Assembly: GCA_965212075.1 (NCBI GenBank)
Contig: OZ243043.1
Span: 260,933 to 324,932 of the forward strand
Direction of reading: 5' to 3'
DNA from: Alphaproteobacteria bacterium
GTDB taxonomy: Bacteria; Pseudomonadota; Alphaproteobacteria; JAPOUT01; G958296285
Length of the DNA stretch: 64,000 nucleotides
In this document: piece by piece, positions 28,698 to 48,867 of the stretch
Layout of the letters: every line of letters starts with the position of its first letter
How positions within the stretch are numbered: position 1 is the stretch's first letter
Position numbers and translations under genes: made by a program
The notes under the pieces: generated by a model
Database searches by the model: none
Told to the model about the DNA's origin: nothing
The model's input: the letters and a program-made list of their open reading frames with translations, nothing else

Positions 28698-28875
28698 TTC
28701 GCTGACGGGAGGCCTCCTTTTTCGTGATTATGCCCGCGATTATGGCCGCATAACACGCTGCCCGCAAGGCTGAAGGGAGATGAGGGGGTAAGAAAAATTT
28801 AACCCTAGGGCTATAATGATAGAAGGCATTTTAAGGTGCATTTTAGGACGAGTCCGCATTAAGTTTCGGAACAAA

Positions 28876-29586
28876 AATATGAGCAAACAAGATCACAGTT
28901 TGGGCGCGGCCCTTTTGACCCTTGTCTTTTTTTTGGGCGGTTGCGGGACGACGGATGTGCAGTCTCTGCCCGATGATCTGTTGCAGAGCTTGGCCGCGCC
29001 CGATTCTTATGTAGCGACGCAAGATGGCGTGGCCACAAATAATGCACAGCCCGATTCTAGTCAAGTCAAAGGCAAAAATGGCGCAGCAGCCAAAGGCGGT
29101 CCGTTTGCGCGTCTTCGCCGTGCGCTTGAGCGCGGTGATTTTGATCCCAGTAAAATCAAAGCGCCTGAATATAACGTGCCGGTCTATAAGAGTGGAATCA
29201 AAAAGAAGCAGCAGCTTGGCGCGCTGATGGATTCGGCTTATGATGCTTATGAAAAAGTGACCGGAGATAAATGGTATCCGCGCCGCGCGCGCATTGGCAC
29301 AGGCAGGCCTTCGGGTGATCCTTTGCTCAATCCGAACTGGTGGCAGATTTATGCCGGCCAGACTCTGCAGCGAACATTGGCGACATGGGGCGCACGCGCG
29401 GGATGGCGCGTCGTGTGGAAGTCGGATTATGAATATCCGATTGAGGCCAACGCTGTTTTTATCGGAGACTTTCCCAAAGTGGTGCAGCGCGTTTTGGAGG
29501 TTTTTGAAAAAGAGCCGTCTCCGGTTCATGCGGTTTTTTATAAGAATCGCGTTGTTGTTATAGATAATCATGAAGGTAATGGATGA
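28876..29586 (+). CDS. lipoprotein with TcpQ-like C-terminal domain (PilL-like, type IVb pilus-associated)
   Basis: Start moved to MSKQDHSLGAALLTLVFFLGGCG (lipobox LGGC). The C-terminus TLQRTLATWGARAGWRVVWKSDYEYPIEANAVFIGDF matches the TcpQ/PilL family pattern as I remember it. Confidence 0.55.
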   Translation, partial: NMSKQDHSLGAALLTLVFFLGGCGTTDVQSLPDDLLQSLAAPDSYVATQDGVATNNAQPDSSQVKGKNGAAAKGGPFARLRRALERGDFDPSKIKAPEYNVPVYKSGIKKKQQLGALMDSAYDAYEKVTGDKWYPRRARIGTGRPSGDPLLNPNWWQIYAGQTLQRTLATWGARAGWRVVWKSDYEYPIEANAVFIGDFPKVVQRVLEVFEKEPSPVHAVFYKNRVVVIDNHEGNG

Positions 29587-31094
29587 TGCGTCGGTCTGCT
29601 TTTTTACTGGCTTTTTTACTGGCTCTGCCTCTGCTTGCAGGCTGCGCTGCGTTTTTTGAAGATGACGTCGTTTTTGATGATGCGGCGCAGCAGGCTGCAA
29701 ATGCAGAAAAAGATATTCAAGAATTCTATCAAGCGCTTCAGCAAAGCATAGACAAAGCGCCGCAGGCCAAGACAGCGCGCAAGAAGAAAAAGCGCGCGCG
29801 CACTTTGACGCGCTATGTGGATGAGGTTTGGCTTGGTGACAGGCCAAAATTTTTCATGCGCGGCCAGCAAAACCTGCCGGATAAGATCAAGCGCCAGCGC
29901 GGCTTGGTTTTTGTCAGCGCGGTAGATTTGGATATTCGTCTGATTGCCAGCCGGATTTCTGAAATGACAGGCATTCCGGTTCAAGTGAGGGGGTCGCATA
30001 TCAGGAATATCAAACTGATAAAGCGCGCGCGGTTGAATTATCGCGGCTCGCTGATCGGCCTTTTGAATGTCGTCGCGAATTCGTTTGAGGCGTCGTGGTC
30101 TTATGACGTAAAGAGCCGCAGCCTGATGTTCACGCGGCTGATGACGCGCGCATTTAATTTTTATGCGCCGCCTGATGAAACTGCATTCGCAACGCCCGTC
30201 GTCAAGACGGGCGAAGCCAAGCCGCGGTTTTTGAAGGCTGAGGCTTGGCGCAGAATTAAGCGCATTTTGACTGATGTGATGCCATCCGGCTCGCGCGCCA
30301 ACATATCTCCTGAAGCGGGCAAGATCACTGTCACGACCACACCGCCCGCAATGGAGCGTGTCGCGCAGCTTATTCGTGTTCACAATCAATATTTCACCCG
30401 TGAAGTTCACTTAAATGTTCAAGTGATTTCTTTTGATCTCAAAGATGATCTTGGCGCTGCGAACAGACGCCGTTTGAATCTGCCCACTTTGTTGAAGGCT
30501 GCGGGGCTGGATAGCCAAAAAATGCCGACCGACAAGAGCGAAGACAAAAAAAAGCTGTCGCAGATTGAGCTGATGAATGTTGATATTGGGCTGATCATTG
30601 CCGCTTTGCGCAAGATCGGCAAAGTATCGGTTTTGACGATCACCGATACGCAAACGAGAGACGGCAAGGTCACGCCGATCTCCATGACCTCGCAGCAGGC
30701 CTACCTGCCGCGGCCTGAGGAGGTGTCGACCAATGAAACCAATGCGCCGACAACCATCACGACGGGGTTTTCAATGCGTGTGCGCCCGCGCATTTTGCCG
30801 CGCGCGCGCGTGCAGCTGGATATGTCTATGTCGCTGCGCGTGCTTGACCAGATTAAGAGTTTGGGTGCAGACAATAATCGCGTGCAGATTCCTGAAATAT
30901 CAACAAATTCGTGGGCGCAAGAGACGATTATTCCCAATAGAGCGACTTTGCTCGTTGCGGGCTTTGAGCATGGCGGGCAAAAGGTGGGCGCGGCAAGAAA
31001 CCAAAACGCATTGCGCGCGCTGATGATCGTTTTGATCACGCCGACGATTATTGAACAGACCAACGCTGAAGAGGTGAGCGGTGCGGCGGGATAA
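29583..31094 (+). CDS. secretin-family outer-membrane lipoprotein (R64 PilN-like)
   Basis: Lipobox LLAGC after a signal peptide. The C-terminal secretin domain reads VSVLTITDTQTRDGKVTPISMTSQQAYLP...ATLLVAGFEH. 4-nt overlap with the upstream gene. Confidence 0.6.
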   Translation: MMRRSAFLLAFLLALPLLAGCAAFFEDDVVFDDAAQQAANAEKDIQEFYQALQQSIDKAPQAKTARKKKKRARTLTRYVDEVWLGDRPKFFMRGQQNLPDKIKRQRGLVFVSAVDLDIRLIASRISEMTGIPVQVRGSHIRNIKLIKRARLNYRGSLIGLLNVVANSFEASWSYDVKSRSLMFTRLMTRAFNFYAPPDETAFATPVVKTGEAKPRFLKAEAWRRIKRILTDVMPSGSRANISPEAGKITVTTTPPAMERVAQLIRVHNQYFTREVHLNVQVISFDLKDDLGAANRRRLNLPTLLKAAGLDSQKMPTDKSEDKKKLSQIELMNVDIGLIIAALRKIGKVSVLTITDTQTRDGKVTPISMTSQQAYLPRPEEVSTNETNAPTTITTGFSMRVRPRILPRARVQLDMSMSLRVLDQIKSLGADNNRVQIPEISTNSWAQETIIPNRATLLVAGFEHGGQKVGAARNQNALRALMIVLITPTIIEQTNAEEVSGAAG

Positions 31095-31581
31095 TCATAT
31101 CATCATGGCTCTTGCGGTGATGGGGCTGGCGGCTTCTACCGCACAAGCTACTGCACAGGCGCGTCCGGCGCCTAGCCAGATAGAGGAGCTGCTGCAGCAG
31201 CAGATCAATCAGGATCGTTTTCAAAAGCAGCAAGAGCGGCAAAAGCAGCTTCAAAGGGGGGTGCCTTTGCGCAGATCTTCATCTCAAGAGACACCACCGC
31301 GCACACCGCGCGCGCGCGCGGCTAAAGAGCAGCCTTATAGTGTGCTTATCATTGCAGGCAAGCGCAAGGCATTGCAGGCCGATTTAATTGACGAAAATCA
31401 AGAAGTGATCCGCGTCAAAGTGGGAGATCGCTTGACCACATCTTCATCGCAAGTTTTCTTTGTCAGAGCAATTACGGATAAAAGCGTGCAATTGGTGAAA
31501 GATGGCAGAGTCTTTTTTGCGCCGATGGCAACAGAAAAGAACATCAAGCCGCGCGCGCGTTCGCGCTCCTCAAACAGATGA
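31081..31581 (+). CDS. PilP-like periplasmic protein (secretin-associated beta-domain)
   Basis: Signal peptide (MALAVMGLAASTAQATAQA) and a C-terminal beta-rich block (YSVLIIAGKRKALQADL...VKVGDRL...VQLVKDG) resembling PilP/GspC. Confidence 0.45.
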   Translation: MRRDNHIIMALAVMGLAASTAQATAQARPAPSQIEELLQQQINQDRFQKQQERQKQLQRGVPLRRSSSQETPPRTPRARAAKEQPYSVLIIAGKRKALQADLIDENQEVIRVKVGDRLTTSSSQVFFVRAITDKSVQLVKDGRVFFAPMATEKNIKPRARSRSSNR

Positions 31582-32078
31582 GACGGCGGAAATTTCCTGA
31601 TACTTTTTTTGTGTTATCTATAGCGGCGGCGCTGATAGCGGGTCTGCTTGCATGGCGGCAGGGTTTTGATGCGGATAAAACCAGCCTATTGACGATGAGC
31701 ATAGAAGGGACTTTGGCGCAAATCCGCACGGATTTTGCTGCCGCGCGGGATTATAGCTTTTTGAGCACCGTCTATGATAGCCGCCGCAAAAATCCTTGGG
31801 GGAATTTTACTGTTAGAGCAAGCGCTTATAATGGCGGTGCGGGCGCTTCTCATGTTCAGATTCGCCTCACGCAGATTCCCGACAAAGTGTGCGAGAATTT
31901 ATTAAAAACTTTGGGTGCAGATCGTTTTTTTATTCATGTGATTGAAGATGCAGATGACATCGTTAATTGGAGCGCGGCGATCAGCGTTTCGGCGCGCAAT
32001 TGCCAGAGCTTTGCCAATCAGGCAAAAAACGCTGTCCAATTGATATGGATGAAATCTAAAGTTCACGGATCAAAATGA
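31578..32078 (+). CDS. small N-terminally anchored protein with a C-terminal Cys pair (possible pilin/pseudopilin-like)
   Basis: MRRRKFPD followed by a 20-residue hydrophobic segment. Two Cys about 39 residues apart near the C-terminus (CENLL ... ARNCQSF). No canonical G/FTLIE prepilin site. Confidence 0.3.
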   Translation: MRRRKFPDTFFVLSIAAALIAGLLAWRQGFDADKTSLLTMSIEGTLAQIRTDFAAARDYSFLSTVYDSRRKNPWGNFTVRASAYNGGAGASHVQIRLTQIPDKVCENLLKTLGADRFFIHVIEDADDIVNWSAAISVSARNCQSFANQAKNAVQLIWMKSKVHGSK

Positions 32079-32091
32079 CTGAGGGGAGTGA

Positions 32092-33069
32092 GTGATTATG
32101 AGTCTTTCCAACATTCGGATGAGAGATATTTATTTTACAGCAGATGGACGCGTGCTGCTTTCAATTGACGGTGATTTGTTTTCGCTTGAGCGTATTGTCG
32201 CGCCGGAAAATGCAGATTTTCTTTCGTCCATTTTAAAGGTGCAGACTAAGGATTTAACATTTGCGGCGCGGGCGATCATCACCGACAGCCAAGAGATTTA
32301 TGATTTGGCGCGCAAGAAAAATGAGGCGGCGGGCGAAATCCATCACGATGAAACTGTTTACCATTTTAGCCGCCTATTGCCGCACGAGGACTCGGCTTTG
32401 TTTCATTTGCGCCGCCTTGAGAGCGAGGTGCCTAATTTGGAGACTTTGGGTCTGTCGCGGAATCTGATCTGGCATATTGAGCAGACGTGCCAAAAAGCAG
32501 GCTTGGTGGTGGCGGTAGGTCTTGAGAATGCGCGGCGTTCGGCGCGCTTATCTTCTTTGCTGTATTCATTATTGCATGCACGAGGCAAATTGGCGTGGAC
32601 TTTGGAAAGCGCGCCTGCCTATCGGCTCGCCGGGCTTTATCATCACGATCACGATGATGGCTATTGCGTTCAAGCGCATGTTGCCCAGCCATTATGGGGC
32701 GAGACCATTCGCGCCGCGAGCGCCGCCGATGCGGATTATATTTTAATTGATGAGATCAAAGAGGCCGAATGTGCCGCGCAAGCTCTGACGGCGGCGAGTT
32801 CGGGGCATCTTGTTTTATCAGGGTTTTACGCTGAAACGATTCCCGAAGCTTTGTCGCGGCTTGCCGATTATGCGGCGTCGGTTTTGAGCGAGACTTTGGC
32901 GCGCAAATTGATTGCGCAGTCTTTTCTTTTGGCGTTTGATGATGAGGGCGCACTTTTTGCTGATCTTGAGGTGAAAAACAAAATCGCGGCGGGCAAATGG
33001 ATTATGCTGACGAGTGATATAGAAAGCCAGATGGAGCGCCTGCGGCATGGCCAGCCACCTTTTGCCTGA
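32092..33069 (+). CDS. GspE/PilB-family secretion ATPase homologue with degenerate Walker A (predicted catalytically inactive)
   Basis: Asp-box-like TLESAP and the Walker B/His-box region (ADYILIDEIKEAECAAQALTAASSGHLVLSGF) are present. The position where GPTGSGKST should be reads GLENARRS. About 325 aa, so it lacks the N-terminal domains. Confidence 0.55.
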   Translation: MIMSLSNIRMRDIYFTADGRVLLSIDGDLFSLERIVAPENADFLSSILKVQTKDLTFAARAIITDSQEIYDLARKKNEAAGEIHHDETVYHFSRLLPHEDSALFHLRRLESEVPNLETLGLSRNLIWHIEQTCQKAGLVVAVGLENARRSARLSSLLYSLLHARGKLAWTLESAPAYRLAGLYHHDHDDGYCVQAHVAQPLWGETIRAASAADADYILIDEIKEAECAAQALTAASSGHLVLSGFYAETIPEALSRLADYAASVLSETLARKLIAQSFLLAFDDEGALFADLEVKNKIAAGKWIMLTSDIESQMERLRHGQPPFA

Positions 33070-33083: not shown

Positions 33084-33503
33084 ATGGAAATGAAAGATAT
33101 GACATTAGAGCACGTCTTGGAAGATTTTGCTTTGTTTGATGCGTGGGAGGATAAATATCGCTATCTGATAGAGCTGGGCAAAGCGCTGCCGCCTTTATCA
33201 AAAAGCGAACAGATCGCTGCGAATAAAGTTTCGGGCTGTGTGAGTCAAGTTTGGTTGGTTTCGCAGATTGGCGCAGACGGGCAGCTCATCTTGCGCGGCA
33301 CAAGTGATGCGTATATTGTGAGCGGTCTCATCGCTTTGCTGCTGAAAATTTATGCCAGCAAAAGGCCGGAGGAGATTTTAACCACTGACGCCGAAGAGAT
33401 ATTTCAGCGTCTGGGATTTGCCGATCATCTGACGCCGCAGCGCTCAAGCGGCTTTTACGCGATGGTGCGCCGGATCAAAGCTGACGCACAGGCAGAAATC
33501 TAG
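33084..33503 (+). CDS. sufE: cysteine desulfuration protein SufE
   Basis: KYRYLIELGK...VSGCVSQVWL SufE active-site Cys motif. Confidence 0.85.
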   Translation: MEMKDMTLEHVLEDFALFDAWEDKYRYLIELGKALPPLSKSEQIAANKVSGCVSQVWLVSQIGADGQLILRGTSDAYIVSGLIALLLKIYASKRPEEILTTDAEEIFQRLGFADHLTPQRSSGFYAMVRRIKADAQAEI

Positions 33504-34258
33504 CGAATGATGTGATAATGGCGCGCAAGCTGTGTGAGCGCGATGCCGAGCACGATCTTGCCTGAACGTTTCGGCCAGCCCAATGCATTTTCGGCCTGTG
33601 TGAGGCCGCGCATGTGGCAGCATACTTTCATTGTAATTTCGGCAAGCTCCGGGCCTAAGGCTTTCAGCGCGCGCCCGAGGCGCATCCGTGCTGCCAGCGC
33701 GCGCTCATTCATCAGCAACCCGTCATGCGGCTGCCGTCCTGCCTGTTTATTAGCGGGCGGTGCTGTGAGGTCAATGGTCATGCGCGGGCGCATCGTGCTT
33801 TGCAAAAAATCATTTTGCAGCCGCGACGCCGCCTGTAGCTGCTCTGCGCTGATCAGACATTTGCCATCCGGCCCGCGCCGTCGGCTGAGCCAGAGCAAGG
33901 GATTTTCCACAATGTTGATCTCGCAGGACTCTTTTACAGGCCTGACCCTCATCTGATGCTGGCCGCGAAAAATATCCTTATCTTTGAGGCTGGCGCGTCT
34001 GAACCACATCGCGCCGGTTGGGCTCGCGGTTAATTTTTTGCCGGTCGCGGTCAAAAAGTCATGGGCGCGCATCGCGGAGATGAAATCCGCGCTGCATGTC
34101 ATCACAGGCTTGGCATTGGATCTGGCTGTGTGGAGTCCATAGGCGCCATCTTTTTGCGGCAGCAGATAAGCACGCGGCGCGAGCAGACGGCGCAGGATTT
34201 GCCGTGCTTGGCGTTCAAAAGCCTTGCGGCCAATTTGATCACCGGGAGCTGCGCGCAT
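33500..34258 (-). CDS. C-terminal sigma-region-4-like HTH protein (DUF6456-like), candidate GafZ-like half of a split GafA
   Basis: C-terminal HTH (GLTQAENALGWPKRSGKIVLGIALTQLARHY). Start taken at MRAAPGDQ to avoid an 89-nt overlap with the upstream gene; the longer start at 34369 is not excluded. Confidence 0.4.
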   Translation of the reverse strand: MRAAPGDQIGRKAFERQARQILRRLLAPRAYLLPQKDGAYGLHTARSNAKPVMTCSADFISAMRAHDFLTATGKKLTASPTGAMWFRRASLKDKDIFRGQHQMRVRPVKESCEINIVENPLLWLSRRRGPDGKCLISAEQLQAASRLQNDFLQSTMRPRMTIDLTAPPANKQAGRQPHDGLLMNERALAARMRLGRALKALGPELAEITMKVCCHMRGLTQAENALGWPKRSGKIVLGIALTQLARHYHIIR

Positions 34259-34280
34259 TATCAGCACAATGCTCTCTTCG

Positions 34281-34622
34281 CTAGTTGAGGCGCTTTGCAA
34301 TTTGTGCGAGGCCTTCTTCAAGTCGGCAGAGCTGCATATCAAAGCGAGGATCATCGCGTCTTTCCTCAATGATGCGGCAGGCGTGGGAGGCTGTGGTGCG
34401 ATCGCGTCCGAAACAGGCGCCGGTTCGTGTCAGCGAGACGCCCAGCGCGACATGGCTCAGATACATGGCCGTTTGCCGCGCAAAGGCGATCGGCGCTTTG
34501 CGTCTTGTCGGCGCGCGCATTTCGGCGAGTGCGACGTTAAAGGCTTGCGCAACGGCGGTTTGGGCCAAATTCACCCGCGCTTGTTCAGCGCGGCGGCTTA
34601 TTTGTGTGCGAACATCTTCCAT
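34281..34622 (-). CDS. DnaA domain-IV-like HTH protein, candidate GafY-like half of a split GafA
   Basis: AMYLSHVALGVSLTRTGACFGRDRTTASHACRIIEERRDD matches the DnaA C-terminal DNA-binding helix-turn-helix signature. Confidence 0.5.
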   Translation of the reverse strand: MEDVRTQISRRAEQARVNLAQTAVAQAFNVALAEMRAPTRRKAPIAFARQTAMYLSHVALGVSLTRTGACFGRDRTTASHACRIIEERRDDPRFDMQLCRLEEGLAQIAKRLN

Positions 34623-34692
34623 ATTTTCCTCCTTTGATATTCGTGAGTTTATTGTATATGCAATTTATAGTTGCATAAAAAGGTTATAAATA

Positions 34693-34725
34693 GAACATAC
34701 AAAGAACATATAAAGAATACAATAC
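34693..34725. repeat. three tandem about-11-bp units (GAACATAcAAA / GAACATAtAAA / GAAtACAATAC) in the AT-rich promoter region
   Basis: Direct reading. Spacing is about one helical turn. It lies between the divergent DnaA-C-like gene and dadA, followed by the CGCGGCG-N8-CGCCGCG inverted repeat at 34786-34807. Confidence 0.5.
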
Positions 34726-34854
34726 ACTTATTAAGTGCAATATACATAAGCTGCTTATGGACGGGGATATCAAAATCGCTTTTTTGTCAAAATATCGCGG
34801 CGCGAAACATCGCCGCGCGAATTGACACCCCGTCTAGAGGGGGTAAAAGCAGAA

Positions 34855-36114
34855 ATGAAAATAATTATTTTAGGCGCAGGGTTAGCGGGCATTTGTTCAA
34901 GCTGGACGCTCGCGCGCGATGGCCATGAGGTGGTCGTCATTGATCGCCATCCGGCGGCGGCGCGCGGCACGAGCTTTGCCAATGGCGGCCATATCGCGGC
35001 GAGCGAAGCTCTGCCTTGGTCGAGCAAGGTGATTTTGCGCCGCCTGCTTTTGAGCTTTGTCCGGCGTCAGGGCGCGATGCGGCTGCATTTGCGCGCTGAT
35101 CCGGCGCAGTGGTGGTGGCTGGCGCGCATGGTTGCCAATGCGTCCGCCGGAGCTTGGCGCTCCAACACACATCGTTTGTTATCGCTTGCCGCTTTGAGTC
35201 AGGCCTGCTTCGCGCAATGGCTGGACGAGATCAAAGACGAAGATTCTCACATCAACGATAATGGTGTTTTGCATATATTTTCGGGCCGCGGCGCGATGCA
35301 GCGTGCGAAAAAGCGCGCGGCACTCATGGAGGCCAACGGGATTGATGTGCAGGTTTTGGACGGACATCTCTGTATGCGCACCGAACCTGCGCTGACGAAG
35401 GCGGTGCAATATCGTCGGGTTGAGGCGGGGCTGTTTTTTGCCTCCGATAAGACAGGAGACGCGCGCGCTTTTACTGAGACATTGAGCACACATGCCGCCA
35501 AGAAGGGTGTGAAATTTTTGTTCAATCATCAATTGACGGGTGTTGTGATGGAGGGTCGCCGGATCAAATCCGTGTTGACGGATCGCGGTGAGGTGAAGGG
35601 TGATATTTTTATTTTGGCGCTGGGCACGGACAGCGCATCTTTTGCGAAACATTTTGGGCTTGATCTGCCGATCTATCCGGTGCGCGGCTATTCGGTGACG
35701 ATGGCGACCAATGGCGCGCACGCGCCCAAATTAGGATTGGTGGATGAATCGCGCCGCGTGGTTGTCAGCCGTCTGGGGGCGCAATTGCGTCTTGCGGGTC
35801 TTGCGGATATTGGCGCGGCAGGGCATGAGATTCCGAGTCACCGCGCGGATATGCTGATGCGCGCTTGGTCGGAATTGCTGCCTGAGAGCGCGGATCGCGC
35901 TTCGGCCAAATTTTGGATTGGCGAGCGTCCGATGACTCCCGACAGCCTGCCTCTGCTTGGCCGCGCGCAGATGACGGACAATCTTTATTTGAATACGGGT
36001 CATGGCGCGCTGGGCTGGACGTTATGCCATGCGAGCGCGCAACTCACTGCAGATTTGATCGCGCGCCGCGCGCCGCAGCTTGATCCGACGCCGTTCTCGC
36101 TCTCAAGATTTTAA
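34855..36114 (+). CDS. dadA: D-amino acid dehydrogenase small subunit
   Basis: Start moved to MKIIILGAGLAGICSSW (FAD Rossmann fold). Length and C-terminus typical of DadA. Confidence 0.8.
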   Translation: MKIIILGAGLAGICSSWTLARDGHEVVVIDRHPAAARGTSFANGGHIAASEALPWSSKVILRRLLLSFVRRQGAMRLHLRADPAQWWWLARMVANASAGAWRSNTHRLLSLAALSQACFAQWLDEIKDEDSHINDNGVLHIFSGRGAMQRAKKRAALMEANGIDVQVLDGHLCMRTEPALTKAVQYRRVEAGLFFASDKTGDARAFTETLSTHAAKKGVKFLFNHQLTGVVMEGRRIKSVLTDRGEVKGDIFILALGTDSASFAKHFGLDLPIYPVRGYSVTMATNGAHAPKLGLVDESRRVVVSRLGAQLRLAGLADIGAAGHEIPSHRADMLMRAWSELLPESADRASAKFWIGERPMTPDSLPLLGRAQMTDNLYLNTGHGALGWTLCHASAQLTADLIARRAPQLDPTPFSLSRF

Positions 36115-36119
36115 GCGGG

Positions 36120-36608
36120 TTATTTTTTGGCGCGCAGTTCCCAGATCGTCTTGCCGCCCTGTGTTGGCTGGTACCAGAGCGAAAAGTCAGAGGTCGCCTT
36201 TTGCCATAGATCTTCATCTGCACCGTCGGGCAGAGCAAAGGCGTTAAAGCCGCAGCGCAGCATAAAAAACGCCTGATCTGCCAAAAGATCGCCGGTGGCG
36301 CGCAGCTCGCCTTCAAATCCCATCTCTTCGCGCAGGATGCGCGCCTGCGAAAAAGCGCGGCCATCGCGGAACGCCGGAAAGGAAAGCGCGATCAGCTGAA
36401 AATGCGCCAGATCATCGGCGAGAAGCTGCGGATCTTCCTCGTTCGGGAATAAAATGCCCAGCGCGGCGTTGCTCTGCAGCAGCCTCTGGCGCTCTTTCTG
36501 CCATTTTTCCCATGGGACAATAATTTGATCATGATCGGGCAGGGCGTCTTGATCTTCAAGCTGCCGCCAATCATCTTTGATGAAATCGTTGTTTTTAAGA
36601 AGCGGCAT
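36120..36608 (-). CDS. DUF934 protein (sulfite-reductase-associated)
   Basis: Start moved to MPLLKNNDFIKDDW, the family-typical N-terminus. Immediately downstream of the sulfite reductase gene. Confidence 0.6.
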   Translation of the reverse strand: MPLLKNNDFIKDDWRQLEDQDALPDHDQIIVPWEKWQKERQRLLQSNAALGILFPNEEDPQLLADDLAHFQLIALSFPAFRDGRAFSQARILREEMGFEGELRATGDLLADQAFFMLRCGFNAFALPDGADEDLWQKATSDFSLWYQPTQGGKTIWELRAKK

Positions 36609-38250
36609 AAAGCCGTTCTTTGAAAGGCGCATTGCCGACCCGCCGCCATGTCTGCAAGAAGGTTTCCTGATCGCGGCGCAGCGCGCGATAAGTTTCCACG
36701 ATGGTTTCAATCGCGTCAACGATTTCGTCTTCAGTGAAGGCCGGGCCGATAAGCTTGCCGATGGCGGTGTTTTCATCCGCCGAGCCGCCCAGAGTGACCT
36801 GATAATATTCGGTGCCTTTTTTATCAACGCCCAATATGCCGATATGGCCGACATGGTGATGGCCGCAGGCATTCATGCAGCCGGAGATTTTGATTTTCAT
36901 CGCACCGATATCCTCCTGCCGCGCGGGGTCGGCAAAGCGTTTGGCGATATTTTGCGCAATCGGAATGGAGCGCGCATTCGCGAGGTTGCAATAATCAAGT
37001 CCGGGGCAGGTGATCTGGTCGGAGATCAGGCCGATATTCGGCGTGGCGAGGTCGTGCTTTTTGAGCTCCTGCCAGAGCGCGGCGAGGTCTTGTTTGCGGA
37101 CATGGGCGAGGGTCAAGTTTTGTTCATGCGTGACGCGCACTTCACCGAAGCTGAATCGCTCGGCGATGTCGGCGACGGCCTCCATCTGCTCGCTGCTGGC
37201 GTCGCCGGGCGCGATGTCGTGAGTCTTGAGAGAGATATTGACGATCGCATAATTCGGGATTTTATGCGGCGCGGTGTTGATGCGCAAAAACCGATCAAAC
37301 TCCTGATCATCCTGTGAATCATCTTGTTGCGGCATCGGGGCATCGCCGGTTTCGTAAGGCGGCGGGGCGAAATAGGCGCGAATGCGCTGCTCTTCTTCTT
37401 CGGGCAAGCGGAGCTTTGTTTTGTCGCGGATTCCGGCAAAGGCTTCGGCGACTTGTTTGCGCATCTCTTCCGCGCCGATCGCATGGACAAGAATTTTGAT
37501 CCGCGCTTTGAACAGATTGTCGCGCCGCCCATGGCGATTATAAACGCGCATGATCGCTTCAAGATAGGGCAGAAGGTCGACTTTGGAAACAAAAAGCGAC
37601 ATCTCCTGCGCGACCATCGGGGTGCGGCCTTGTCCGCCTCCGGCATAAACAGCAAAGCCGACTTCGCCTTGATCGCTCTTGACGATGCGAATGCCGATAT
37701 CATGCGCCAAGATCGCCGCGCGATCATGCGCGCAGCCGGTGACGGCGATTTTGAATTTGCGCGGCAGAAAAGAAAATTCCGGATGAAAGGTGGACCATTG
37801 GCGGATGATCTCCGCCCAGATGCGCGGATCTTCCACTTCGTCTGCGGCGACGCCGGCATAATGGTCGGCGGTGACGTTGCGGATGCAATTGCCGCTGGTC
37901 TGGATGCAGTGCATCTCCACTTCGGCGAGCGCTTCCAATATAGCGGGGACGTCTTTAAGCTTGGGCCAGTTGAGCTGGATGTTTTGCCGCGTCGTGAAAT
38001 GGCCATAGCCGCGATCATATTTGCGCGCGATCATCGCAAGCTGCCGCATTTGCTGCGCGGAGAGCGTCCCATAAGGCACGGCGATCCGCAGCATATAAGC
38101 GTGAAGCTGGAGATAGAGTCCGTTCATCAAGCGCAAAGGTTTGAACTGATCATCGCTCAGCTCGCCGCGCAGACGGCGCGCGACTTGGCCGCGAAATTGC
38201 TCAATCCGCTCTTTGACGATCTGGTGATCAAATTCATCATAGCGATACAT
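36595..38250 (-). CDS. cysI: nitrite/sulfite reductase hemoprotein (CysI-type)
   Basis: Ferredoxin-like half-domains and the siroheme Cys cluster region (TGCAHDRA...ISGCMNACGHH). Confidence 0.85.
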   Translation of the reverse strand: MYRYDEFDHQIVKERIEQFRGQVARRLRGELSDDQFKPLRLMNGLYLQLHAYMLRIAVPYGTLSAQQMRQLAMIARKYDRGYGHFTTRQNIQLNWPKLKDVPAILEALAEVEMHCIQTSGNCIRNVTADHYAGVAADEVEDPRIWAEIIRQWSTFHPEFSFLPRKFKIAVTGCAHDRAAILAHDIGIRIVKSDQGEVGFAVYAGGGQGRTPMVAQEMSLFVSKVDLLPYLEAIMRVYNRHGRRDNLFKARIKILVHAIGAEEMRKQVAEAFAGIRDKTKLRLPEEEEQRIRAYFAPPPYETGDAPMPQQDDSQDDQEFDRFLRINTAPHKIPNYAIVNISLKTHDIAPGDASSEQMEAVADIAERFSFGEVRVTHEQNLTLAHVRKQDLAALWQELKKHDLATPNIGLISDQITCPGLDYCNLANARSIPIAQNIAKRFADPARQEDIGAMKIKISGCMNACGHHHVGHIGILGVDKKGTEYYQVTLGGSADENTAIGKLIGPAFTEDEIVDAIETIVETYRALRRDQETFLQTWRRVGNAPFKERLYAAS

Positions 38251-38272
38251 TTTATGATCCTCTTATGATTCT

Positions 38273-38593
38273 CTATTTTCCTTCAGCCTGTTTGCCGAGG
38301 TCAAGCCGGACGGTCGGGCCTTTGGCGCGGATGCGCTCGCGTTCGCTGACAGGCTGCGGCGTGTTCTGATCGGCGGTCACCTCAAACAGATAAGGCTCCA
38401 CGACGACCCGCTTGGCTGCGCTGGTCTCGCCTTTTGCGAGCAAAGTCTGCGCTGCTGCTTCATCACCGAAGGCGGCGTCTTTGATCGACTCCGACCATTC
38501 TCCCGATGATGACAGATAGACCACCACGCCGTCAATCAGCCGGTTGGCCGTTAATGCCTGTAAGGCGGCTTTTTTTCGCGTGTGCTGTGCCAT
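38273..38593 (-). CDS. DUF2849 protein (upstream partner of sulfite reductase)
   Basis: 106 aa in the position conserved in alphaproteobacterial cysI operons. From memory. Confidence 0.5.
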   Translation of the reverse strand: MAQHTRKKAALQALTANRLIDGVVVYLSSSGEWSESIKDAAFGDEAAAQTLLAKGETSAAKRVVVEPYLFEVTADQNTPQPVSERERIRAKGPTVRLDLGKQAEGK

Positions 38594-38673
38594 AAATTTT
38601 TGCCCAGATGAAGATATCCTCGGTTGACAGCGCGGCGATATGATCCCATCTCCACTCTATCTGCCGGAGAAAG

Positions 38674-38701
38674 CATCGGGAGATCCCCCTATCTCCCGAT
38701 G
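38674..38701. promoter_or_regulatory. perfect 11-bp-arm inverted repeat CATCGGGAGAT-cccccT-ATCTCCCGATG upstream of GTA g1, candidate operator
   Basis: Read directly. A partial third copy (GATCCCCTAACTATCT) follows. It lies about 35 nt upstream of the first GTA gene and has no T-run, so it is unlikely to be a terminator. Confidence 0.5.
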
Positions 38702-38736
38702 CGATCCCCTAACTATCTGCATATTTTAATTGCTTT

Positions 38737-39042
38737 GTGTTGTCAAACTTCAGCGATCAGGCGCATTTATACGACCTTTTGGCGCGCATTCATGCCCTGA
38801 TGGAAAGATATTTTGACGCGCTTGAAAACAATCTCGCACATAAGGATTATCGCTTCGAGCAGCGCGAGCGCGACGCCCGTGTGTTTAGCACACTCGCGCG
38901 CACTTTGGAAAAATTAACTCACGTTGAACAGCTTATCACAGAACCGCCGCGCGCCGCAGACAGCGACGCCGAAACGCGAAAACGTCTTGAGCAGAGACTG
39001 GCTCGGCTCATTGACATCCCAACAGAGAGAGAAGTTTCTTAA
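38737..39042 (+). CDS. GTA g1-like small helical protein (putative small terminase)
   Basis: 101-aa ORF directly upstream of, and overlapping, the large-terminase start region. Confidence 0.4.
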   Translation: MLSNFSDQAHLYDLLARIHALMERYFDALENNLAHKDYRFEQRERDARVFSTLARTLEKLTHVEQLITEPPRAADSDAETRKRLEQRLARLIDIPTEREVS

Positions 39043-40318
39043 CAGCCTCAATCATGAAGAAGCACAATGGATCATGGCTTACTGGCCGCTCTGGGCGCGC
39101 GCAGACCAGCTCCCGCCTGAGCGGCGGCGGCACACGCACTGGACGAGCTGGCTCATCCTCGGCGGACGCGGCGCAGGCAAAACCCGCGCCGGCGCCGAAT
39201 GGATCCGCGCCGCGGCCACAAAAAATTTCGCGGGTCAAGCCTCATCCGGACCATTGCGTATCGCACTCGTCGGCGAAACATATCTGGCGGCGCGCGCCGT
39301 TATGGTGGAAGGCGAAAGCGGATTGTTGAACATTGGCAGTGAAAAGACGCGGCCTGCGTTCCAGCCATCGCGGCGGCAGCTGCGCTGGCCAAGCGGCGCG
39401 ATCGCTGAATTGTTTTCCGCTGAAGACCCCGAAGCTCTGCGCGGGCCGCAATTTCATTTTGCGTGGTGCGATGAGCTCTGCAAATGGCGCTATGCCGATG
39501 AAACATGGAATATGCTGCAATTTGCCTTGAGGCTTGGTGAACGGCCTCAGCAGGTCATCACGACGACGCCGCGCACGATGCCTTTGCTCAAAAAACTGAT
39601 GGCCGCGCCCGACACCGTCATCACCCATGCGACGACCTATGCCAATCGCGGCAACCTCGCGCCGTCATTTTTTGACTCGATCATTCGCAACTATGAAGGC
39701 ACGCGGCTTGGCCGACAGGAACTTGATGCGGAGCTGATGGAAGATGATCCCGATGCTCTCTGGACACGAGAAATGATCGAGCGCAGCCGCTGTGCGGCGG
39801 CGCCGTCAGATTTGGCGCGCATCATTGTCGCTGTTGATCCGCCGGTGACCGGCACGAAAACCTCAGACGAATGCGGGATCATCGTCGCCGCTTTGGATGA
39901 GGCGCAAAAAGAGATTTATGTACTCGCCGATCATTCGGCAGGCGATCTGTCGCCGACCCAATGGGCCGAGCGCGCGGTGCGCGCTTTGCGCATGCACAAA
40001 GCCGACCGCATTGTTGCTGAGGTGAATCAAGGCGGTGATATGGTTGAGACGATCATCCGGCAGATTGCGCCCTCGGTGCCATTTCGCGCGGTGCGCGCGA
40101 GCCGCAGCAAGCGCCTGCGCGCCGAGCCCGTCGCCGCGCTTTACGAACAAAGGCGGGTTTATCATGTTGGCGCTTTGCCGCAGCTTGAAGATCAAATGTG
40201 CTCTTTTACCGGCAGCGGCAATGCGCCCAGCCCCGATCGCTTGGATGCGCTCGTCTGGGCGATCACCGATTTAATGTTCAGCGGCGCGAGCGGCCTCGCG
40301 CGCATGAGACGGCTTTAA
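38924..40318 (+). CDS. GTA large terminase
   Basis: FLNSLNHEEAQW...WARADQLPP N-terminus and Walker A (GGRGAGKTRAGAEW). Start (TTG at 38924) is uncertain. Confidence 0.8.
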   Translation: MNSLSQNRRAPQTATPKRENVLSRDWLGSLTSQQREKFLNSLNHEEAQWIMAYWPLWARADQLPPERRRHTHWTSWLILGGRGAGKTRAGAEWIRAAATKNFAGQASSGPLRIALVGETYLAARAVMVEGESGLLNIGSEKTRPAFQPSRRQLRWPSGAIAELFSAEDPEALRGPQFHFAWCDELCKWRYADETWNMLQFALRLGERPQQVITTTPRTMPLLKKLMAAPDTVITHATTYANRGNLAPSFFDSIIRNYEGTRLGRQELDAELMEDDPDALWTREMIERSRCAAAPSDLARIIVAVDPPVTGTKTSDECGIIVAALDEAQKEIYVLADHSAGDLSPTQWAERAVRALRMHKADRIVAEVNQGGDMVETIIRQIAPSVPFRAVRASRSKRLRAEPVAALYEQRRVYHVGALPQLEDQMCSFTGSGNAPSPDRLDALVWAITDLMFSGASGLARMRRL

Positions 40319-40336
40319 AAATTTCGCCAAAACAGC

Positions 40337-41566
40337 TTGAAGGATAAACCTATGAAACTTTGGCCATTCAACACCGCGCCCGAGAAAAAAACCGGACGCG
40401 GCGAGCGCCTTGTCGCGCTGCATATGCAGGGACGGCCTGTCTGGACGCCGCGCAACATCGAGTCTTTGGCGCGCGAGGGCTTCATCCGCAATGCGATCGT
40501 CTATCGCTGCGTGCGCATGATCGCCGAAGCGGCGGCCCATATCCCTTGGCTGCTCTACGACAATAAAGTCGAGATGCACGAACATCCGATGTTGGAGCTG
40601 CTCCACCATCCCAATAGCGGCCAGAGCGGCATTGATCTGATGGAAAGCTGGTATGGCCATTTGCAGCTCTCGGGCAATGGCTATTTGGAGATCGTCGATA
40701 TTGGCGCCGCGCGGCGCGAGCTTCATGTGCTGCGTCCGGATCGGATGCGGGTCGTGCCTGACAAAAGAGGCTGGCCGTCCGGCTATGAATATCGCGTCGG
40801 TGGGCGGCGAATGATCTATCCGGGGCGCGATGCCAAAAACCTCGCGCCGATTTTGCATATGCGTCTTTTCCACCCGATCAATGATTATTACGGCATGAGC
40901 CCGATTGAAGCCGCCGCCTATGGCATCGACATTCATAATGCGGCCGGCAGCTGGAGCAAAGCCCTGTTGGATAATTCGGCGCGGCCTTCGGGCGCGCTTG
41001 TTTATAAAGGGCCTGACGGCGCGCCGAACCTGACGCAGGATCAGTTTGCGCGCCTGAAGCGCGAATTGGAGGAAAATTACGAGGGCGCAAACAATGCTGG
41101 CCGGCCTTTATTATTGGAAGGCGGACTTGAATGGGCGTCTATGGGCCATTCGCCGCGCGATATGGATTTCATTGACACGAAGCATGTGGCCGCGCGCGAG
41201 ATTGCACTCGCCTTTGGCGTGCCGCCAATGTTGCTGGGCATCCCCGGAGATAATACCTTCGCCAATTACGCTGAGGCCAATCGGACTTTCTGGCGGCAGA
41301 CGATTTTGCCTCTGGTCACGCGCACCGCCGCAACTTTGACGCAATGGCTCACCCCGCGTTTTGGCCGCTCTTTGCGCCTGTCGTTTGACAGCGACCGGAT
41401 CGATGCGCTTGCCAGTGAACGTGAGTCTTTGTGGAAGCGCATTGCGGATTCGGATTTCTTGACGATCAACGAAAAGCGCGCTGCGATGGGCTATGAGCCG
41501 ATCACGGGCGGAGACGCGCTCGGCAGCATGAGCGCTTCGGGCGCGCGCAATCCATCACAGATATAA
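40337..41566 (+). CDS. GTA portal protein (HK97 family)
   Basis: Length and conserved blocks (GNGYLEIV...MSPIEAAAYGIDIHNAAG). Confidence 0.8.
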   Translation: MKDKPMKLWPFNTAPEKKTGRGERLVALHMQGRPVWTPRNIESLAREGFIRNAIVYRCVRMIAEAAAHIPWLLYDNKVEMHEHPMLELLHHPNSGQSGIDLMESWYGHLQLSGNGYLEIVDIGAARRELHVLRPDRMRVVPDKRGWPSGYEYRVGGRRMIYPGRDAKNLAPILHMRLFHPINDYYGMSPIEAAAYGIDIHNAAGSWSKALLDNSARPSGALVYKGPDGAPNLTQDQFARLKRELEENYEGANNAGRPLLLEGGLEWASMGHSPRDMDFIDTKHVAAREIALAFGVPPMLLGIPGDNTFANYAEANRTFWRQTILPLVTRTAATLTQWLTPRFGRSLRLSFDSDRIDALASERESLWKRIADSDFLTINEKRAAMGYEPITGGDALGSMSASGARNPSQI

Positions 41567-41593
41567 AAAACAAATATAGCCAATAGATATAAA

Positions 41594-41881
41594 ATGAGTT
41601 TAACCGAACAAAAATGGAATCTAGATCGCCGCGTGCCGCTGGTTTTTATCTTGGCGCTGATCGTGCAAAGCGGCGCAGCACTTCTCTGGGTCGGGCAGAT
41701 CACGCAGCGCATCAATCATATAGAACAGGCCACCGGCTTCGCCGCTGATATTGGCGAGCGCATCGTTCGCCTTGAGGCCAACACTTCTTTTATGCGCGCG
41801 ACCCTCCAGCGTGTGGAGCGCAAAATTGACCTGCTGCACGCACAAAAAAATGCCGCCAGACACCGCGGAGGCGGAGAATAA
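41594..41881 (+). CDS. GTA g3.5-like small membrane protein
   Basis: 95 aa, one TM, lying between portal and protease as in RcGTA. Confidence 0.5.
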   Translation: MSLTEQKWNLDRRVPLVFILALIVQSGAALLWVGQITQRINHIEQATGFAADIGERIVRLEANTSFMRATLQRVERKIDLLHAQKNAARHRGGGE

Positions 41882-42463
41882 ATGAATCTTGATTTTTCCC
41901 GCTCAGGCCGGTTTCGCGGCTATGCGAGCATTTTTAACAGCCCCGATCTGGCGCATGATGTGATTATGCCGGGCGCGTTTGCGCGCTCGCTGCACCGCCG
42001 CGGCACGAAGCGCGTGCGCATGCTCTACCAGCATGAGGCCGCGCAGCCGATCGGCATCTGGCACGAACTCAAAGAAGATGGGCAGGGCCTTTTGGTTGAA
42101 GGCTCTTTGCTGCTTGATGTTGAGCGCGCGCATGATGTCTGGAAGCTCATCGGTGCCGGCGCGATTGACGGCCTGTCCATCGGCTTTCGCACGATTCGCT
42201 CCGGCACGGCGCGGCAGCATGGTGTGCGCGTCGTCCATGAAATTGACCTTGTTGAAATTTCCATCGTCACATTCCCGATGCACCCGCAGGCGCGCGTGAG
42301 CCGCCTCGGAGCAATTACGCCGATTCCACAAAATTTACCTTCACAAAACTTAATGGCACAAAACTTAATGGCACAAAACTTAATGGCACAAAACTTAATG
42401 GCACAAAACTTAATGGCACAAAAATTACGCGATGCGGCGAAACATATTTCACCGCATTTTTAA
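41882..42463 (+). CDS. GTA prohead protease (HK97 family) with C-terminal (QNLMA)5 repeat tail
   Basis: HK97 protease blocks (FRGYASIFN...DLAHDVIMPGAF; AIDGLSIGF) and a 25-aa C-terminal repeat. Confidence 0.8.
   Translation: MNLDFSRSGRFRGYASIFNSPDLAHDVIMPGAFARSLHRRGTKRVRMLYQHEAAQPIGIWHELKEDGQGLLVEGSLLLDVERAHDVWKLIGAGAIDGLSIGFRTIRSGTARQHGVRVVHEIDLVEISIVTFPMHPQARVSRLGAITPIPQNLPSQNLMAQNLMAQNLMAQNLMAQNLMAQKLRDAAKHISPHF
42327..42431 (+). repeat. 15-bp tandem repeat CACAAAACTTAATGG x5 (plus degenerate flanks), coding (QNLMA)n
   Basis: Five perfect copies at 42342-42416. The repeat is AT-rich in a GC-rich gene and lies at the 3' end of the protease ORF, upstream of the capsid RBS. Confidence 0.9.
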
Positions 42464-42494
42464 CCCCCACCGGAAACTAACAAAGGAGACCCTT

Positions 42495-43787
42495 ATGAAT
42501 TCCGAAACCCCCAACCATGAAATCAAGGCGCTCGGCGCTGACGGCCATGATGCCCATGAAGTCCGCCACGCGCTCAACGAGCTGATGCGCGCATTTGAAG
42601 CCTTCAAAGAGGCCAATAATGATCGCCTCGCCCAGATTGATCGCCGCCTGAGCGCCGACGTCGTCACCGAAGATAAAATCCACCGTCTCAATGAGACGAT
42701 GGACACGCATCAAAAAATGCTCGACGATTTCGCGATCGCACAGCAGCGCCCGGCGCTGGACAGCTATGTCGGCTCCGCCGAGCGTGAGCACAAAGCCGCG
42801 TTTGACTCTTATCTGCGCAAAGGCATCACCAGCGGCCTCGACAGCTTTGAGAGCAAAGCGCTGTCGACAGCAACAGACTCGGCAGGCGGATATGTCGTGC
42901 CTGAAACGGTGATGCTCGCTGTCACCGATCGTCTCGCGAGCGCATCGCCTTTTCGCCGCCTCGCGACCGTCCAGCAAGTCTCGACGACATCGTTCAAGAA
43001 AGTGCTTACGGCCTCAGGCCCGGACGTCCGATGGGCAATGTCAGAAAGCAATGATGGCACGATCGGAAACCCAGATGGCAGTTTTGCTGAACGCGCCTTC
43101 AACTTCGGGCGGCTGGTCGCCACACCTGTCGCGACGCAAAGCCTGCTTGATGACAGCGCCATTGATCTCGAAAAATGGCTCGCCGACGAAATCTATATCG
43201 GCTTTGCTGAAAAAGAAGCCGAAGCTTTTGTCAAAGGCGATTCCAGCCCGCCTTCGCCGAAGGGCTTTTTGCAGGAGGCCATTGCTGCGCAGGGTGATTC
43301 TCTCACCAATAGCCAGATCGGCTATATTCCGACTGGCAAAAGCGCGGATTGGCCTCTAGATGGCGCCGACGGCGGCGGCAGAATGGCCAAATTGCTTGAA
43401 GTGGTCTATGCGCTCAAAGCGGCTTATCGCACGCAGGCGAGCTGGCTCATGAACAAGACGAGCATTGCCGTCGTGCGCAGCTGGACGGATGCCGAGGGCA
43501 ACGCGCTCTGGCAGCCGCCAACCCAGCTCGGCGCGTCTGCGACTTTGCTGGACTATCCGGTTGCTGAAGTTGAGGATATGCCCAACAAGAATACGTCCGG
43601 CCTTGCTTACCCGCTGGCCTTCGGCAATTGGCAGCGCGGCTATCTGATCGCTGATCGCATGGATATGCGCATCTTGCGCGATCCTTATTCCAGCAAGCCG
43701 AATGTGGTGTTCTATACGACGAAGACCCTCGGCGGCGGCGTGATGGAGCACAGCGCGATCAAACTGCTCAAATGTTCGGTTAACTAA
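42495..43787 (+). CDS. GTA major capsid protein (HK97 family)
   Basis: Start moved to MNSETPNHEIK, 7 nt after an AAGGAG RBS. Conserved capsid blocks throughout. Confidence 0.8.
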   Translation: MNSETPNHEIKALGADGHDAHEVRHALNELMRAFEAFKEANNDRLAQIDRRLSADVVTEDKIHRLNETMDTHQKMLDDFAIAQQRPALDSYVGSAEREHKAAFDSYLRKGITSGLDSFESKALSTATDSAGGYVVPETVMLAVTDRLASASPFRRLATVQQVSTTSFKKVLTASGPDVRWAMSESNDGTIGNPDGSFAERAFNFGRLVATPVATQSLLDDSAIDLEKWLADEIYIGFAEKEAEAFVKGDSSPPSPKGFLQEAIAAQGDSLTNSQIGYIPTGKSADWPLDGADGGGRMAKLLEVVYALKAAYRTQASWLMNKTSIAVVRSWTDAEGNALWQPPTQLGASATLLDYPVAEVEDMPNKNTSGLAYPLAFGNWQRGYLIADRMDMRILRDPYSSKPNVVFYTTKTLGGGVMEHSAIKLLKCSVN

Positions 43788-43866
43788 CCACAAGTGAACA
43801 AAATGCCCGTCCGTTTTACTGCGGGCGGGCATTTAACTTGAGCATTTAACGGGAAAAATTTTTACG

Positions 43867-44421
43867 ATGTTTCTTTCACTCAAAACCGGACCGGCCATTG
43901 AGCCGGTGAGCCTTGCTGAAGCCAAAGCGCATCTGCGCATGGATGGCACCGATGAAGACGGGCTGATCAATTCGCTGATCACCGCCGCGCGCCTGATGGT
44001 GGAGGCGCACACGGCGCGCGCACTGATCACACAGGCTTGGCTGCTTCATTTGGACAATACATATTTGGACAGCCCATCAGGATTTTATGAGTTGCCGCTT
44101 CAGCCGGCAAAGGAGATCACCGGCGTCAAAGTTTTCGCCAAAGATGGCGCCGAGACCCCGCTCAGCGCGGAGGATTACATCACCGAAATGCGTGGCGAAA
44201 CGATGAGGGTGAAGCTTCACCGCACCGCGCACCGCGCTGAAGTAGCCTTTGTCGTCGGCTATGGCGACGAGGCGTCAAATGTGCCGGCACCTTTGACGCA
44301 GGCGATTTTGCAGCTGACCGCTAATTGGTTTGAAAATCGCGGCAATGCGTCTTTGATGGGCAGCGCCATGCCTAAGGCGGTTTCGGTTTTGCTCGCTCCT
44401 TATCGCAGTGTGCACTTATGA
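43867..44421 (+). CDS. GTA head-tail connector (gp6-like)
   Basis: Position and size in the GTA order. Confidence 0.6.
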   Translation: MFLSLKTGPAIEPVSLAEAKAHLRMDGTDEDGLINSLITAARLMVEAHTARALITQAWLLHLDNTYLDSPSGFYELPLQPAKEITGVKVFAKDGAETPLSAEDYITEMRGETMRVKLHRTAHRAEVAFVVGYGDEASNVPAPLTQAILQLTANWFENRGNASLMGSAMPKAVSVLLAPYRSVHL

Positions 44422-45184: not shown

Positions 45185-45222
45185 CCCAGCCAAAGCAACC
45201 AATTACCTTAAAGGAGAAAAAT

Positions 45223-46225: not shown

Positions 46226-46233
46226 GAGAAAAT

Positions 46234-46836: not shown

Positions 46837-46860
46837 AATTTTCATTGGTAGAAAAATCAA

Positions 46861-47517: not shown

Positions 47518-47525
47518 GAGTCTTT

Positions 47526-48862: not shown

Positions 48863-48867
48863 GACAT

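Follow-up and report, generated by a model that had tools for sequence, protein, structure and literature searches.

A probable gafY–gafZ operon, the two-gene form of the gene transfer agent activator GafA, near an RcGTA-type cluster of an alphaproteobacterium

A 64-kb stretch of contig OZ243043.1 from an alphaproteobacterium, hereafter the window, was analyzed after an earlier note, made from the letters alone, had placed a split GafA-like activator pair about 4 kb from a gene transfer agent (GTA) cluster. Two genes lie there, both on the minus strand. The gafY-like gene, at 34281–34622, encodes a stand-alone DnaA-domain-IV-like helix-turn-helix (HTH) protein of 113 aa, which is also the length in the public gene call. 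It is followed by the gafZ-like gene at 33500–34258, whose 252-aa product has a DUF6456 domain; a sigma-region-4-like HTH lies within this domain, at the C-terminus. Their presumed target is a complete head–tail gene cluster of the Rhodobacter capsulatus GTA (RcGTA) type at 38740–52794 on the plus strand. We consider it likely that the locus is a gafY–gafZ operon, i.e., a two-gene version of GafA, the GTA activator, and that it belongs to the RcGTA-type cluster 4 kb away.

The identity of the two proteins was examined with Pfam, BLASTP and structure comparison. The 113-aa protein matched Pfam Bac_DnaA_C over residues 21–84 with an E-value of 3.8e-16, which passes the curated cutoff, and in the PDB it matched solved structures of DnaA domain IV (E 2e-8 to 4e-8), in agreement with the DnaA-domain-IV-like ORF (open reading frame) of the earlier note; no AAA+ or other DnaA domains were found in it. 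The 252-aa protein matched DUF6456 with an E-value of 3.3e-42. The homology search that the note had proposed was run by BLASTP with GafY and GafZ of Caulobacter and GafA of Rhodobacter, whose published sequences were taken from Tran and Le 2024 (Supplementary Fig. 8), and bore out the assignment: the 113-aa protein aligned with Caulobacter GafY (53% over 60 aa, E 1e-16) and with the N-terminus of GafA (35% over 62 aa, E 0.002), and the 252-aa protein aligned with Caulobacter GafZ (40% over 136 aa, E 7e-24) and with the C-terminus of GafA (38% over 138 aa, E 2e-22). The central region of GafA, residues 70–225, gave no BLASTP alignment with the 252-aa protein.

No relative of a solved structure was found for the GafZ-like protein by sequence. 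An AlphaFold (AF2) model built with 28 homologues (pLDDT 83.6) had an N-terminal helix-and-strand domain at residues 11–92, then a poorly predicted linker, and a C-terminal four-helix unit at residues 183–247 with pLDDT above 90. The best credible PDB matches of this unit in Foldseek were to the −35-binding region 4 of extracytoplasmic function (ECF) sigma factors, with probabilities of 0.94–0.99. The top match, 3vfz_A, had a target TM of 0.88, an rmsd of 1.2 Å and a probability of 0.99; the whole-chain E-values across the ECF sigma matches were weak, at 0.4–0.6. Because the modeled C-terminal unit resembles ECF sigma −35-binding domains, the sigma-region-4-like label given to it in the earlier note holds.

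The note had left two arrangements open, an 89-nt overlap of the two ORFs or their adjacency, and two explanations, a split activator or a frameshifted fusion. The overlap is an artefact of taking the longest ORF: the longest ORF for the second gene, at 33500–34369, has 289 aa and a TTG start, and runs 89 nt into the gafY-like ORF in the other frame. The public gene call instead starts at the ATG at 34258 and gives 252 aa. When the DNA was aligned with that of the two closest relatives, the metagenome-assembled L081 and L082 (GafZ 70% and 66% identical, respectively), this ATG and the codons after it were conserved, whereas the 37 codons before it were not. Since the ATG at 34258 is both conserved and publicly called, the gap from gafY to gafZ is 22 nt, and adjacency is the arrangement that stands. 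The gafY genes of L081 and L082 extend for 12–13 more codons and overlap gafZ by 4 or 20 nt, the added residues being a non-conserved tail; the window GafY ends at an earlier TAG. A ribosome-binding site, AAGGAGG, can be read at 34628–34634 on the minus strand, 5 nt 5′ of the gafY ATG; it is present in L081 and absent from L082.

A frameshift or sequencing error that split one fused gafA into two ORFs would account for the overlap in the other frame, and Rhodobacter GafA is indeed one polypeptide (PMC9632790). However, the alignment of 34281–34369 with the relatives, a check proposed in the note, showed no signs of a frameshift. The GafY end is a tail that varies in length, L081 and L082 carry the same two genes, and a GafY-like ORF lies directly 5′ of the GafZ-like gene on the same strand in 79 of 80 other genomes. 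With the stop and start in place, this shared two-gene layout and separate public calls of 113 and 252 aa, we rejected a broken fusion, which we regard as next to impossible. The layout is not the fused single-polypeptide form of GafA: there are two genes here, and of the two explanations in the note the split activator is the one upheld by the homology and the layout.

The 80 genomes are GTDB species representatives with a GafZ relative (34–50% identity in the best aligned segment) from the Methyloligellaceae, Hyphomicrobiaceae, Parvibaculaceae and other families. The locus search was seeded with 8 sequences; an alignment of 18 sequences was too diverse. Split activators of this kind were already known. 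In Rhizobiales, gafA is often split into two ORFs, one for the DnaA-like and one for the sigma-like half, as Fogg 2019 described (PMC6363796). The names GafY and GafZ for the Caulobacter pair come from Gozzi et al. 2022, who showed the two to be necessary and sufficient for GTA production and found an adjacent GafY for 494 of 759 GafZ homologues, split genes being commoner than fused ones (PMC9632790). With split gafA genes on record from 2019 and 2022, the pair brings no novelty of its own and is another instance of the known split activator.

The Pfam matches of the GTA cluster run from 38924 to 52794. It contains a g1-like gene, the large terminase gene terL, and genes for the portal, prohead protease, capsid, DUF2460 protein (g12), g13-like protein, NlpC/P60 protein (g14) and GTA_TIM tail protein (g15). 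The cluster starts 4.1 kb from gafYZ, matching the distance of about 4 kb in the note, and the two are transcribed divergently. Between them, at 34855–38593, the note had seen only dadA and cysI; by Pfam there are four housekeeping genes, encoding a DAO-family oxidoreductase (plus strand), a DUF934 protein, a NIR_SIR sulfite reductase and a DUF2849 protein (all minus). The order gafYZ–intervening genes–GTA is the same in L081 and L082, and in L050, a metagenome-assembled genome (MAG) with a 1.73-Mb chromosome, it is the same without the oxidoreductase gene. Outside this window clade, terL lies within 10 kb of gafYZ in only two of the loci, and gafYZ did not turn up in the flanks of any GTA terminase locus from IMG/VR or metagenomes (160 loci). 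The 4-kb linkage is therefore special to this small-genome clade.

We then turned to the promoter regions. The 34623–34854 region upstream of gafY is AT-rich and has direct repeats with an 11-bp period, much as the note had described its repeat-rich AT promoter. When 34600–34870 was aligned with L081 and L082, three conserved blocks stood out in otherwise variable AT-rich sequence, one of them the ribosome-binding site described above. Another is the box GATATCCCCG at 34762–34771 on the minus strand, 147 nt 5′ of the gafY start codon, a candidate GafY-binding element for autoregulation. Promoters were compared over 82 loci, comprising the window and 81 fetched loci with a total of 1.43 Mb. In an unbiased k-mer count, TATCCCC occurred within 200 bp 5′ of gafY in 55 of 79 loci, compared to 0.94 expected, and 64 of the 177 TATCCCC copies in the fetched loci fell in gafY promoters. 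The consensus, TTATCCCCG, was found in the orientation of the gene in 66 of the 82 loci and reversed in 9, with a median position of −116 and variable flanks. The GafY element mapped in Caulobacter has the sequence CAATCCCCATAG on one of its strands, and the gafYZ promoter there holds GATATCCTG and CTATCCACA, 12 bp apart. According to both Caulobacter papers (PMC9632790, PMC11150451), a binding motif for GafY or GafYZ could not be derived, and our literature search with the motif string returned only papers on CRISPR repeats. GafY probably recognizes the DnaA-box variant TTATCCCCG, which is the best candidate recognition sequence that the promoter comparison offers.

Additional full boxes, (A/C)TTATCCCCGC, were seen at similar distances, 550–830 nt and ≈3 kb 5′ of gafY, in several loci, for example L004, L018, L037, L061 and L063, and L014 and L055; some are on the opposite strand and may belong to neighboring genes of the same regulon. 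In L050, about nine tandem GATTTTTR copies lie just 5′ of the gafY box (9340–9415), with nothing similar in the window. At 34790–34819, between the gafY promoter and the oxidoreductase gene, the window has two tandem 15-nt repeats (AAATATCGCGGCGCG / AAACATCGCCGCGCG) forming a GC-rich palindrome, which scanned as terminator-like on the minus strand and is not conserved in L081 or L082. One contig titled Leptospira interrogans (L052, JBNOAI010000003.1) carries an alphaproteobacterial-type gafY–gafZ pair with a TTATCCCCG box and sufE, and is probably a contaminant or misassigned.

A related box is found at the GTA cluster. The GTA promoter core at 38613–38632 (plus strand) consists of the box GATATCCTC (38613–38621), 2 nt and the −35-like hexamer TTGACAGCG; within the 38594–38739 region this arrangement is conserved in L081 and L082, and L050 has GGATATCCCCTCTTGTAA. 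The motif GATATCCYC occurs four times in the window, compared to 0.55 expected, and two of the four copies are those in the gafY and GTA promoters, each in the direction of its gene. Because this motif had been picked after the data had been seen, it was tested on other GTA loci. In 9 of 40 metagenomic GTA loci, the full consensus, (A/C)CTTATCCCCGC, was found 758–839 nt 5′ of terL (expected 0.24, Poisson 6e-12). In eight metagenomic loci, the box lies 96–109 nt 5′ of the same TTGACAGCG, and seven aligned loci, six of them among those eight, have a −10-like TATAnn 17 nt 3′ of TTGACA and an AT-rich stretch between the box and TTGACAGCG. This layout mirrors the Caulobacter GTA promoter, in which the GafY element at −123 to −113 is followed by an IHF site and then by the core, with the GafZ element in its spacer (Tran and Le 2024). 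In the window clade, the GTA box appears to have shifted next to the −35 hexamer.

The window spacer after TTGACA has only an imperfect AGCG-N3-CGAT, compared to AGCG-N3-CGCT in distant GTA promoters, and no palindrome in the window could be assigned confidently as a GafZ-binding element. The metagenomic GTA loci L210–L216, L218 and L224 have this AGCG-N3-CGCT in the −35/−10 spacer, as well as, in the stretch ≈30–45 nt after TTGACAGCG, a second −10-like TATA(A/G)C ≈12 nt after the −10, recalling the sigma-dependent pause element and Q loading at lambda PR′; at the matching offsets the window has CATCTC and TATCTG.

Another reading is that the pair is conserved but idle, with a GTA no longer produced and its regulators decaying. 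The genome seems small (1.61-Mb contig), the GTA promoter has lost ≈100 nt between box and −35, GafY is 12–13 aa shorter than those of its closest relatives, and a g1-like gene without the N-terminal part found elsewhere fits the same picture. Nevertheless, the cluster ORFs all have full length and give strong Pfam matches, both regulators retain all residues that their alignments show as invariant, and conservation of the promoter elements extends to relatives with ≈70% protein identity. We therefore consider an idle remnant improbable.

It is also conceivable that the 113-aa protein is HdaB, a DnaA-related modulator of replication, rather than a GTA activator, its proximity to the GTA cluster being incidental. 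The protein is a DnaA domain IV homologue, gafYZ does not lie beside a GTA cluster in most genomes, and the Caulobacter GafY orthologue was first named HdaB for the effect of its overexpression on replication (cited in PMC9632790). However, Gozzi et al. re-explained the HdaB phenotypes through GTA induction (PMC9632790), the gene is invariably paired with gafZ, and its promoter box recurs in GTA-cluster promoters. A replication role in place of GTA activation thus has very little probability, and the gafY assignment is retained.

The second element of the gafY promoter is a set of direct repeats, ATTC-N7-GTTC-N7-GTTC, at 34693–34718 on the minus strand, with an 11-bp period, which is a candidate repressor operator of gafYZ. 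It includes, at 34707–34693, an exact GTTC-N7-GTTC, the consensus of the LexA (SOS) box of Caulobacter and other Alphaproteobacteria (PMC12700426). The same motif was present in the same orientation in 11 of the 81 related gafY promoters, compared to ≈0.9 expected from a background of 0.011 per 300 bp. The carriers were L081, L082, L050 and eight Parvibaculaceae-type loci, of which seven are from Parvibaculaceae and one is from an unclassified Hyphomicrobiales MAG. The distance from the GafY box to the start of the repeat was 62 bp in the window, L081 and L082, 49–51 bp in the Parvibaculaceae-type loci and 12 bp in L050. Elsewhere in the fetched loci, GTTC-N7-GTTC did not precede any recognizable SOS gene, and no known SOS genes were present there.

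A different repeat, ATTCCTA/TAGGAAT, was found at the corresponding place in 25 other gafY loci, starting 42–49 bp after the box in the 20 that also hold the box, and resembles the Caulobacter RogA operator GGAATAGGAATATCTTCC. The two motifs never occurred in one locus. ATTCCTA/TAGGAAT is not found in the window clade, and the window gafY promoter contains no GGAA-N4-TTCC inverted repeats. From this pattern, a repressor acting at GTTC-N7-GTTC probably keeps gafYZ silent; it would be LexA or a LexA-like paralogue. A bolder, combined proposal, that in the window clade and the Parvibaculaceae an SOS box replaces the RogA-type operator and that TTATCCCCG is the GafY recognition sequence, is put forward tentatively, at somewhat less than even chances.

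A number of observations weigh against these assignments. The assignments come from sequence comparison; the published GafY, GafZ and GafA queries were machine-read from a PDF, with a few residues missing; and the promoter positions are all predicted from sequence. The Caulobacter GafY element has only the ATCCCC core in common with the box, on the other strand, and there was no match to the E. coli-type IHF consensus WATCAANNNNTTR in the gafY or GTA promoter of the window. Among GTA loci, the box was absent 5′ of terL from 31 of the 40 metagenomic ones, and in IMG/VR it was found at the metagenomic-type position in 0 of the 43 loci whose upstream sequence was long enough, with two off-position matches within 1600 nt; 54 IMG/VR loci searched within 800 nt gave a single off-position match, and no strong shared k-mer emerged from the IMG/VR upstream regions. 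Because of these absences the box is not a universal GTA-promoter element, and we rejected it as a general one; in that role, its support comes from a subset of metagenomic loci only. Finally, GTTC-N7-GTTC occurs once in the window, compared to 1.34 expected, i.e., at chance level, so its weight lies in its position and conservation alone, and there was no lexA or rogA among the ten window ORFs of 190–275 aa.

These points bear on the possibility that TTATCCCCG is bound by DnaA or some other factor, and GTTC-N7-GTTC by a protein other than LexA, such as a RogA homologue with changed specificity. TTATCCCCG resembles the DnaA box TTATCCACA, RogA is itself a LexA-like repressor (PMC9632790), both motifs are candidate sites from sequence alone, and the box is missing from most of the sampled GTA promoters. 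On the other hand, position 7 of the box departs from the preference of DnaA, being C in 60 loci (TATCCCC) and A, as in the canonical DnaA-type TATCCAC, in only 2, and all five aligned GafY proteins have RDRTT in place of the DnaA signature RDHTT. In eight GTA promoters, those of the TTGACAGCG loci, the box is also at the place of the Caulobacter GafY element. We thus think other binders rather unlikely, and prefer GafY and a LexA-type repressor as the proteins that would act at these sites.

Downstream of the GTA promoter core, ≈45 nt 3′ of the −35-like hexamer, there is a perfect 11-bp inverted repeat, CATCGGGAGAT / ATCTCCCGATG, with a 6-nt spacer, at 38674–38701 (plus strand). The repeat is identical in L081, has one base deleted with the pairing kept in L082, and is absent in L050. 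As RNA it folds with −29.8 kcal/mol (z = −5.0), and its distance from the −35-like hexamer places it probably in the transcribed leader. In Caulobacter, GafZ is an antiterminator loaded at a palindrome between −35 and −10 (Tran and Le 2024, PMC11150451). We considered whether the window repeat could be the equivalent GafZ-binding element, and judged this unlikely, since it lies 3′ of the core promoter and not between −35 and −10. Most likely, the repeat would form a hairpin in the GTA leader RNA or serve as an operator. No closer metagenomic relatives above 60% terL identity were found in which covariation of the hairpin could be followed. Within the cluster, terminator-like hairpins on the plus strand numbered 34, mildly above the 21.7 in shuffled sequences (sd 4.9). 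One of these, at 43809–43830 (plus) with 8 pairs, directly follows the capsid gene in a short intergenic gap and is a candidate attenuator inside the cluster, which an antiterminator would need to overcome. Rfam and tRNA scans of the window returned nothing.

The g1-like gene at 38740–39042 (plus) has a TTG start, lacks the N-terminal 'EQWAEARRLR...' HTH-like part of distant GTA g1 genes, and overlaps the longest terL ORF, which begins at 38924, by 119 nt. The ORF from the TTG at 38740 showed codon-level conservation in the alignment with L081 and L082. Among the intervening genes, the longest DUF934 ORF (36120–36872, minus) has 250 aa and shares 278 nt with the end of the sulfite reductase gene; DUF934 calls in relatives are 165–168 aa, so its true start is probably well downstream. 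On the other side of the pair, sufE (33084–33503, plus; Pfam SufE E 3.7e-42) is convergent with gafZ. A sufE homologue is found in the fetched flanks of 68 of the 82 loci, across families, nearly always convergent and just 3′ of gafZ, a neighborhood conserved without an obvious functional reason. Beside sufE, at 28816–33069 (plus), is a compact pilus/secretion module, recognized from a relative's annotation and Pfam, with a TcpQ-like gene, a secretin gene, two small ORFs (one weakly PilS-like) and a 325-aa T2SSE/PilT-like ATPase fragment; L081 has the full set and L082 lacks the ATPase.

By analogy with Caulobacter (Gozzi 2022; Tran and Le 2024), GafY would bind in front of both its own operon and the GTA cluster, and would recruit RNA polymerase via sigma-70; there, GafY and IHF activate the gafYZ and GTA promoters through sigma-70 domains 3–4 (PMC11150451). 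The promoter comparison suggests that the window GafY would do so at TATCCYC boxes, GATATCCCCG at the gafY promoter and GATATCCTC beside the GTA −35. GafZ would be loaded onto the polymerase at the GTA promoter, as in Caulobacter, where it antiterminates together with NusA, NusG and NusE, and would allow read-through of terminators inside the 14-kb cluster. We propose that a LexA or LexA-like repressor on GTTC-N7-GTTC, between the box and the start codon, would hold gafYZ off, and that DNA damage could then switch the system on.

If this is correct, GTA production would be wired directly to DNA damage, and a GafY recognition sequence would be kept 5′ of gafY in most Hyphomicrobiales-type genomes and at a subset of GTA clusters. 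The link between DNA damage and GTA induction has so far been only indirect, via cckA in Rhodobacter, where LexA of R. capsulatus acts through this gene, and the LexA box offers a testable one. The TTATCCCCG box, conserved over dozens of species, provides a concrete candidate for the GafY site, from which GafY regulons could be predicted by sequence. For this small-genome alphaproteobacterium, the pair indicates that the GTA cluster next to it is probably live and under regulation. In sum, the evidence supports the earlier note in both its observation and its interpretation, with a modest novelty added by the promoter comparison.

Among the closest known systems is that of Caulobacter, with GafY (CCNA_01111, formerly HdaB) and GafZ (CCNA_01112). 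The window shares with it the operon, the gene order, the domain content and the presence of TATCC-type boxes 5′ of the operon. It differs in that the first 110 residues of its GafZ-like protein have no alignment with GafZ of Caulobacter, and in that its gafY promoter has a LexA-type direct repeat and lacks the RogA sites GGAA-N4-TTCC. The candidate GafY box abuts the GTA −35, whereas the Caulobacter element is ≈120 nt upstream with an IHF site between, and the window operon lies 4 kb from its GTA cluster. The alphaproteobacterial SOS box is present in the window gafY promoter as a predicted site, with exact consensus and conserved position; direct LexA control of gafYZ or gafA is not described in the cited literature. 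Compared to the DnaA box TTATCCACA, TTATCCCCG has 7 of 9 positions in common and differs at position 7, where it has C, and at position 9, where it has G. Lambda Q, Q21 and Pseudomonas AlpA, for which a promoter DNA element loads the factor onto polymerase, were the analogy that Tran and Le 2024 drew for GafZ; they have no sequence relationship to the window GafZ-like protein, and a later preprint described a sigma-region-4-like fold common to GafZ and Q21. Rhodobacter capsulatus GafA (rcc01865) is a single polypeptide of 382 aa, with a central region that binds the omega subunit of RNA polymerase, whereas the window has two genes, and the N-terminal DnaA-like and C-terminal sigma-like parts of GafA each match one of the two window proteins.

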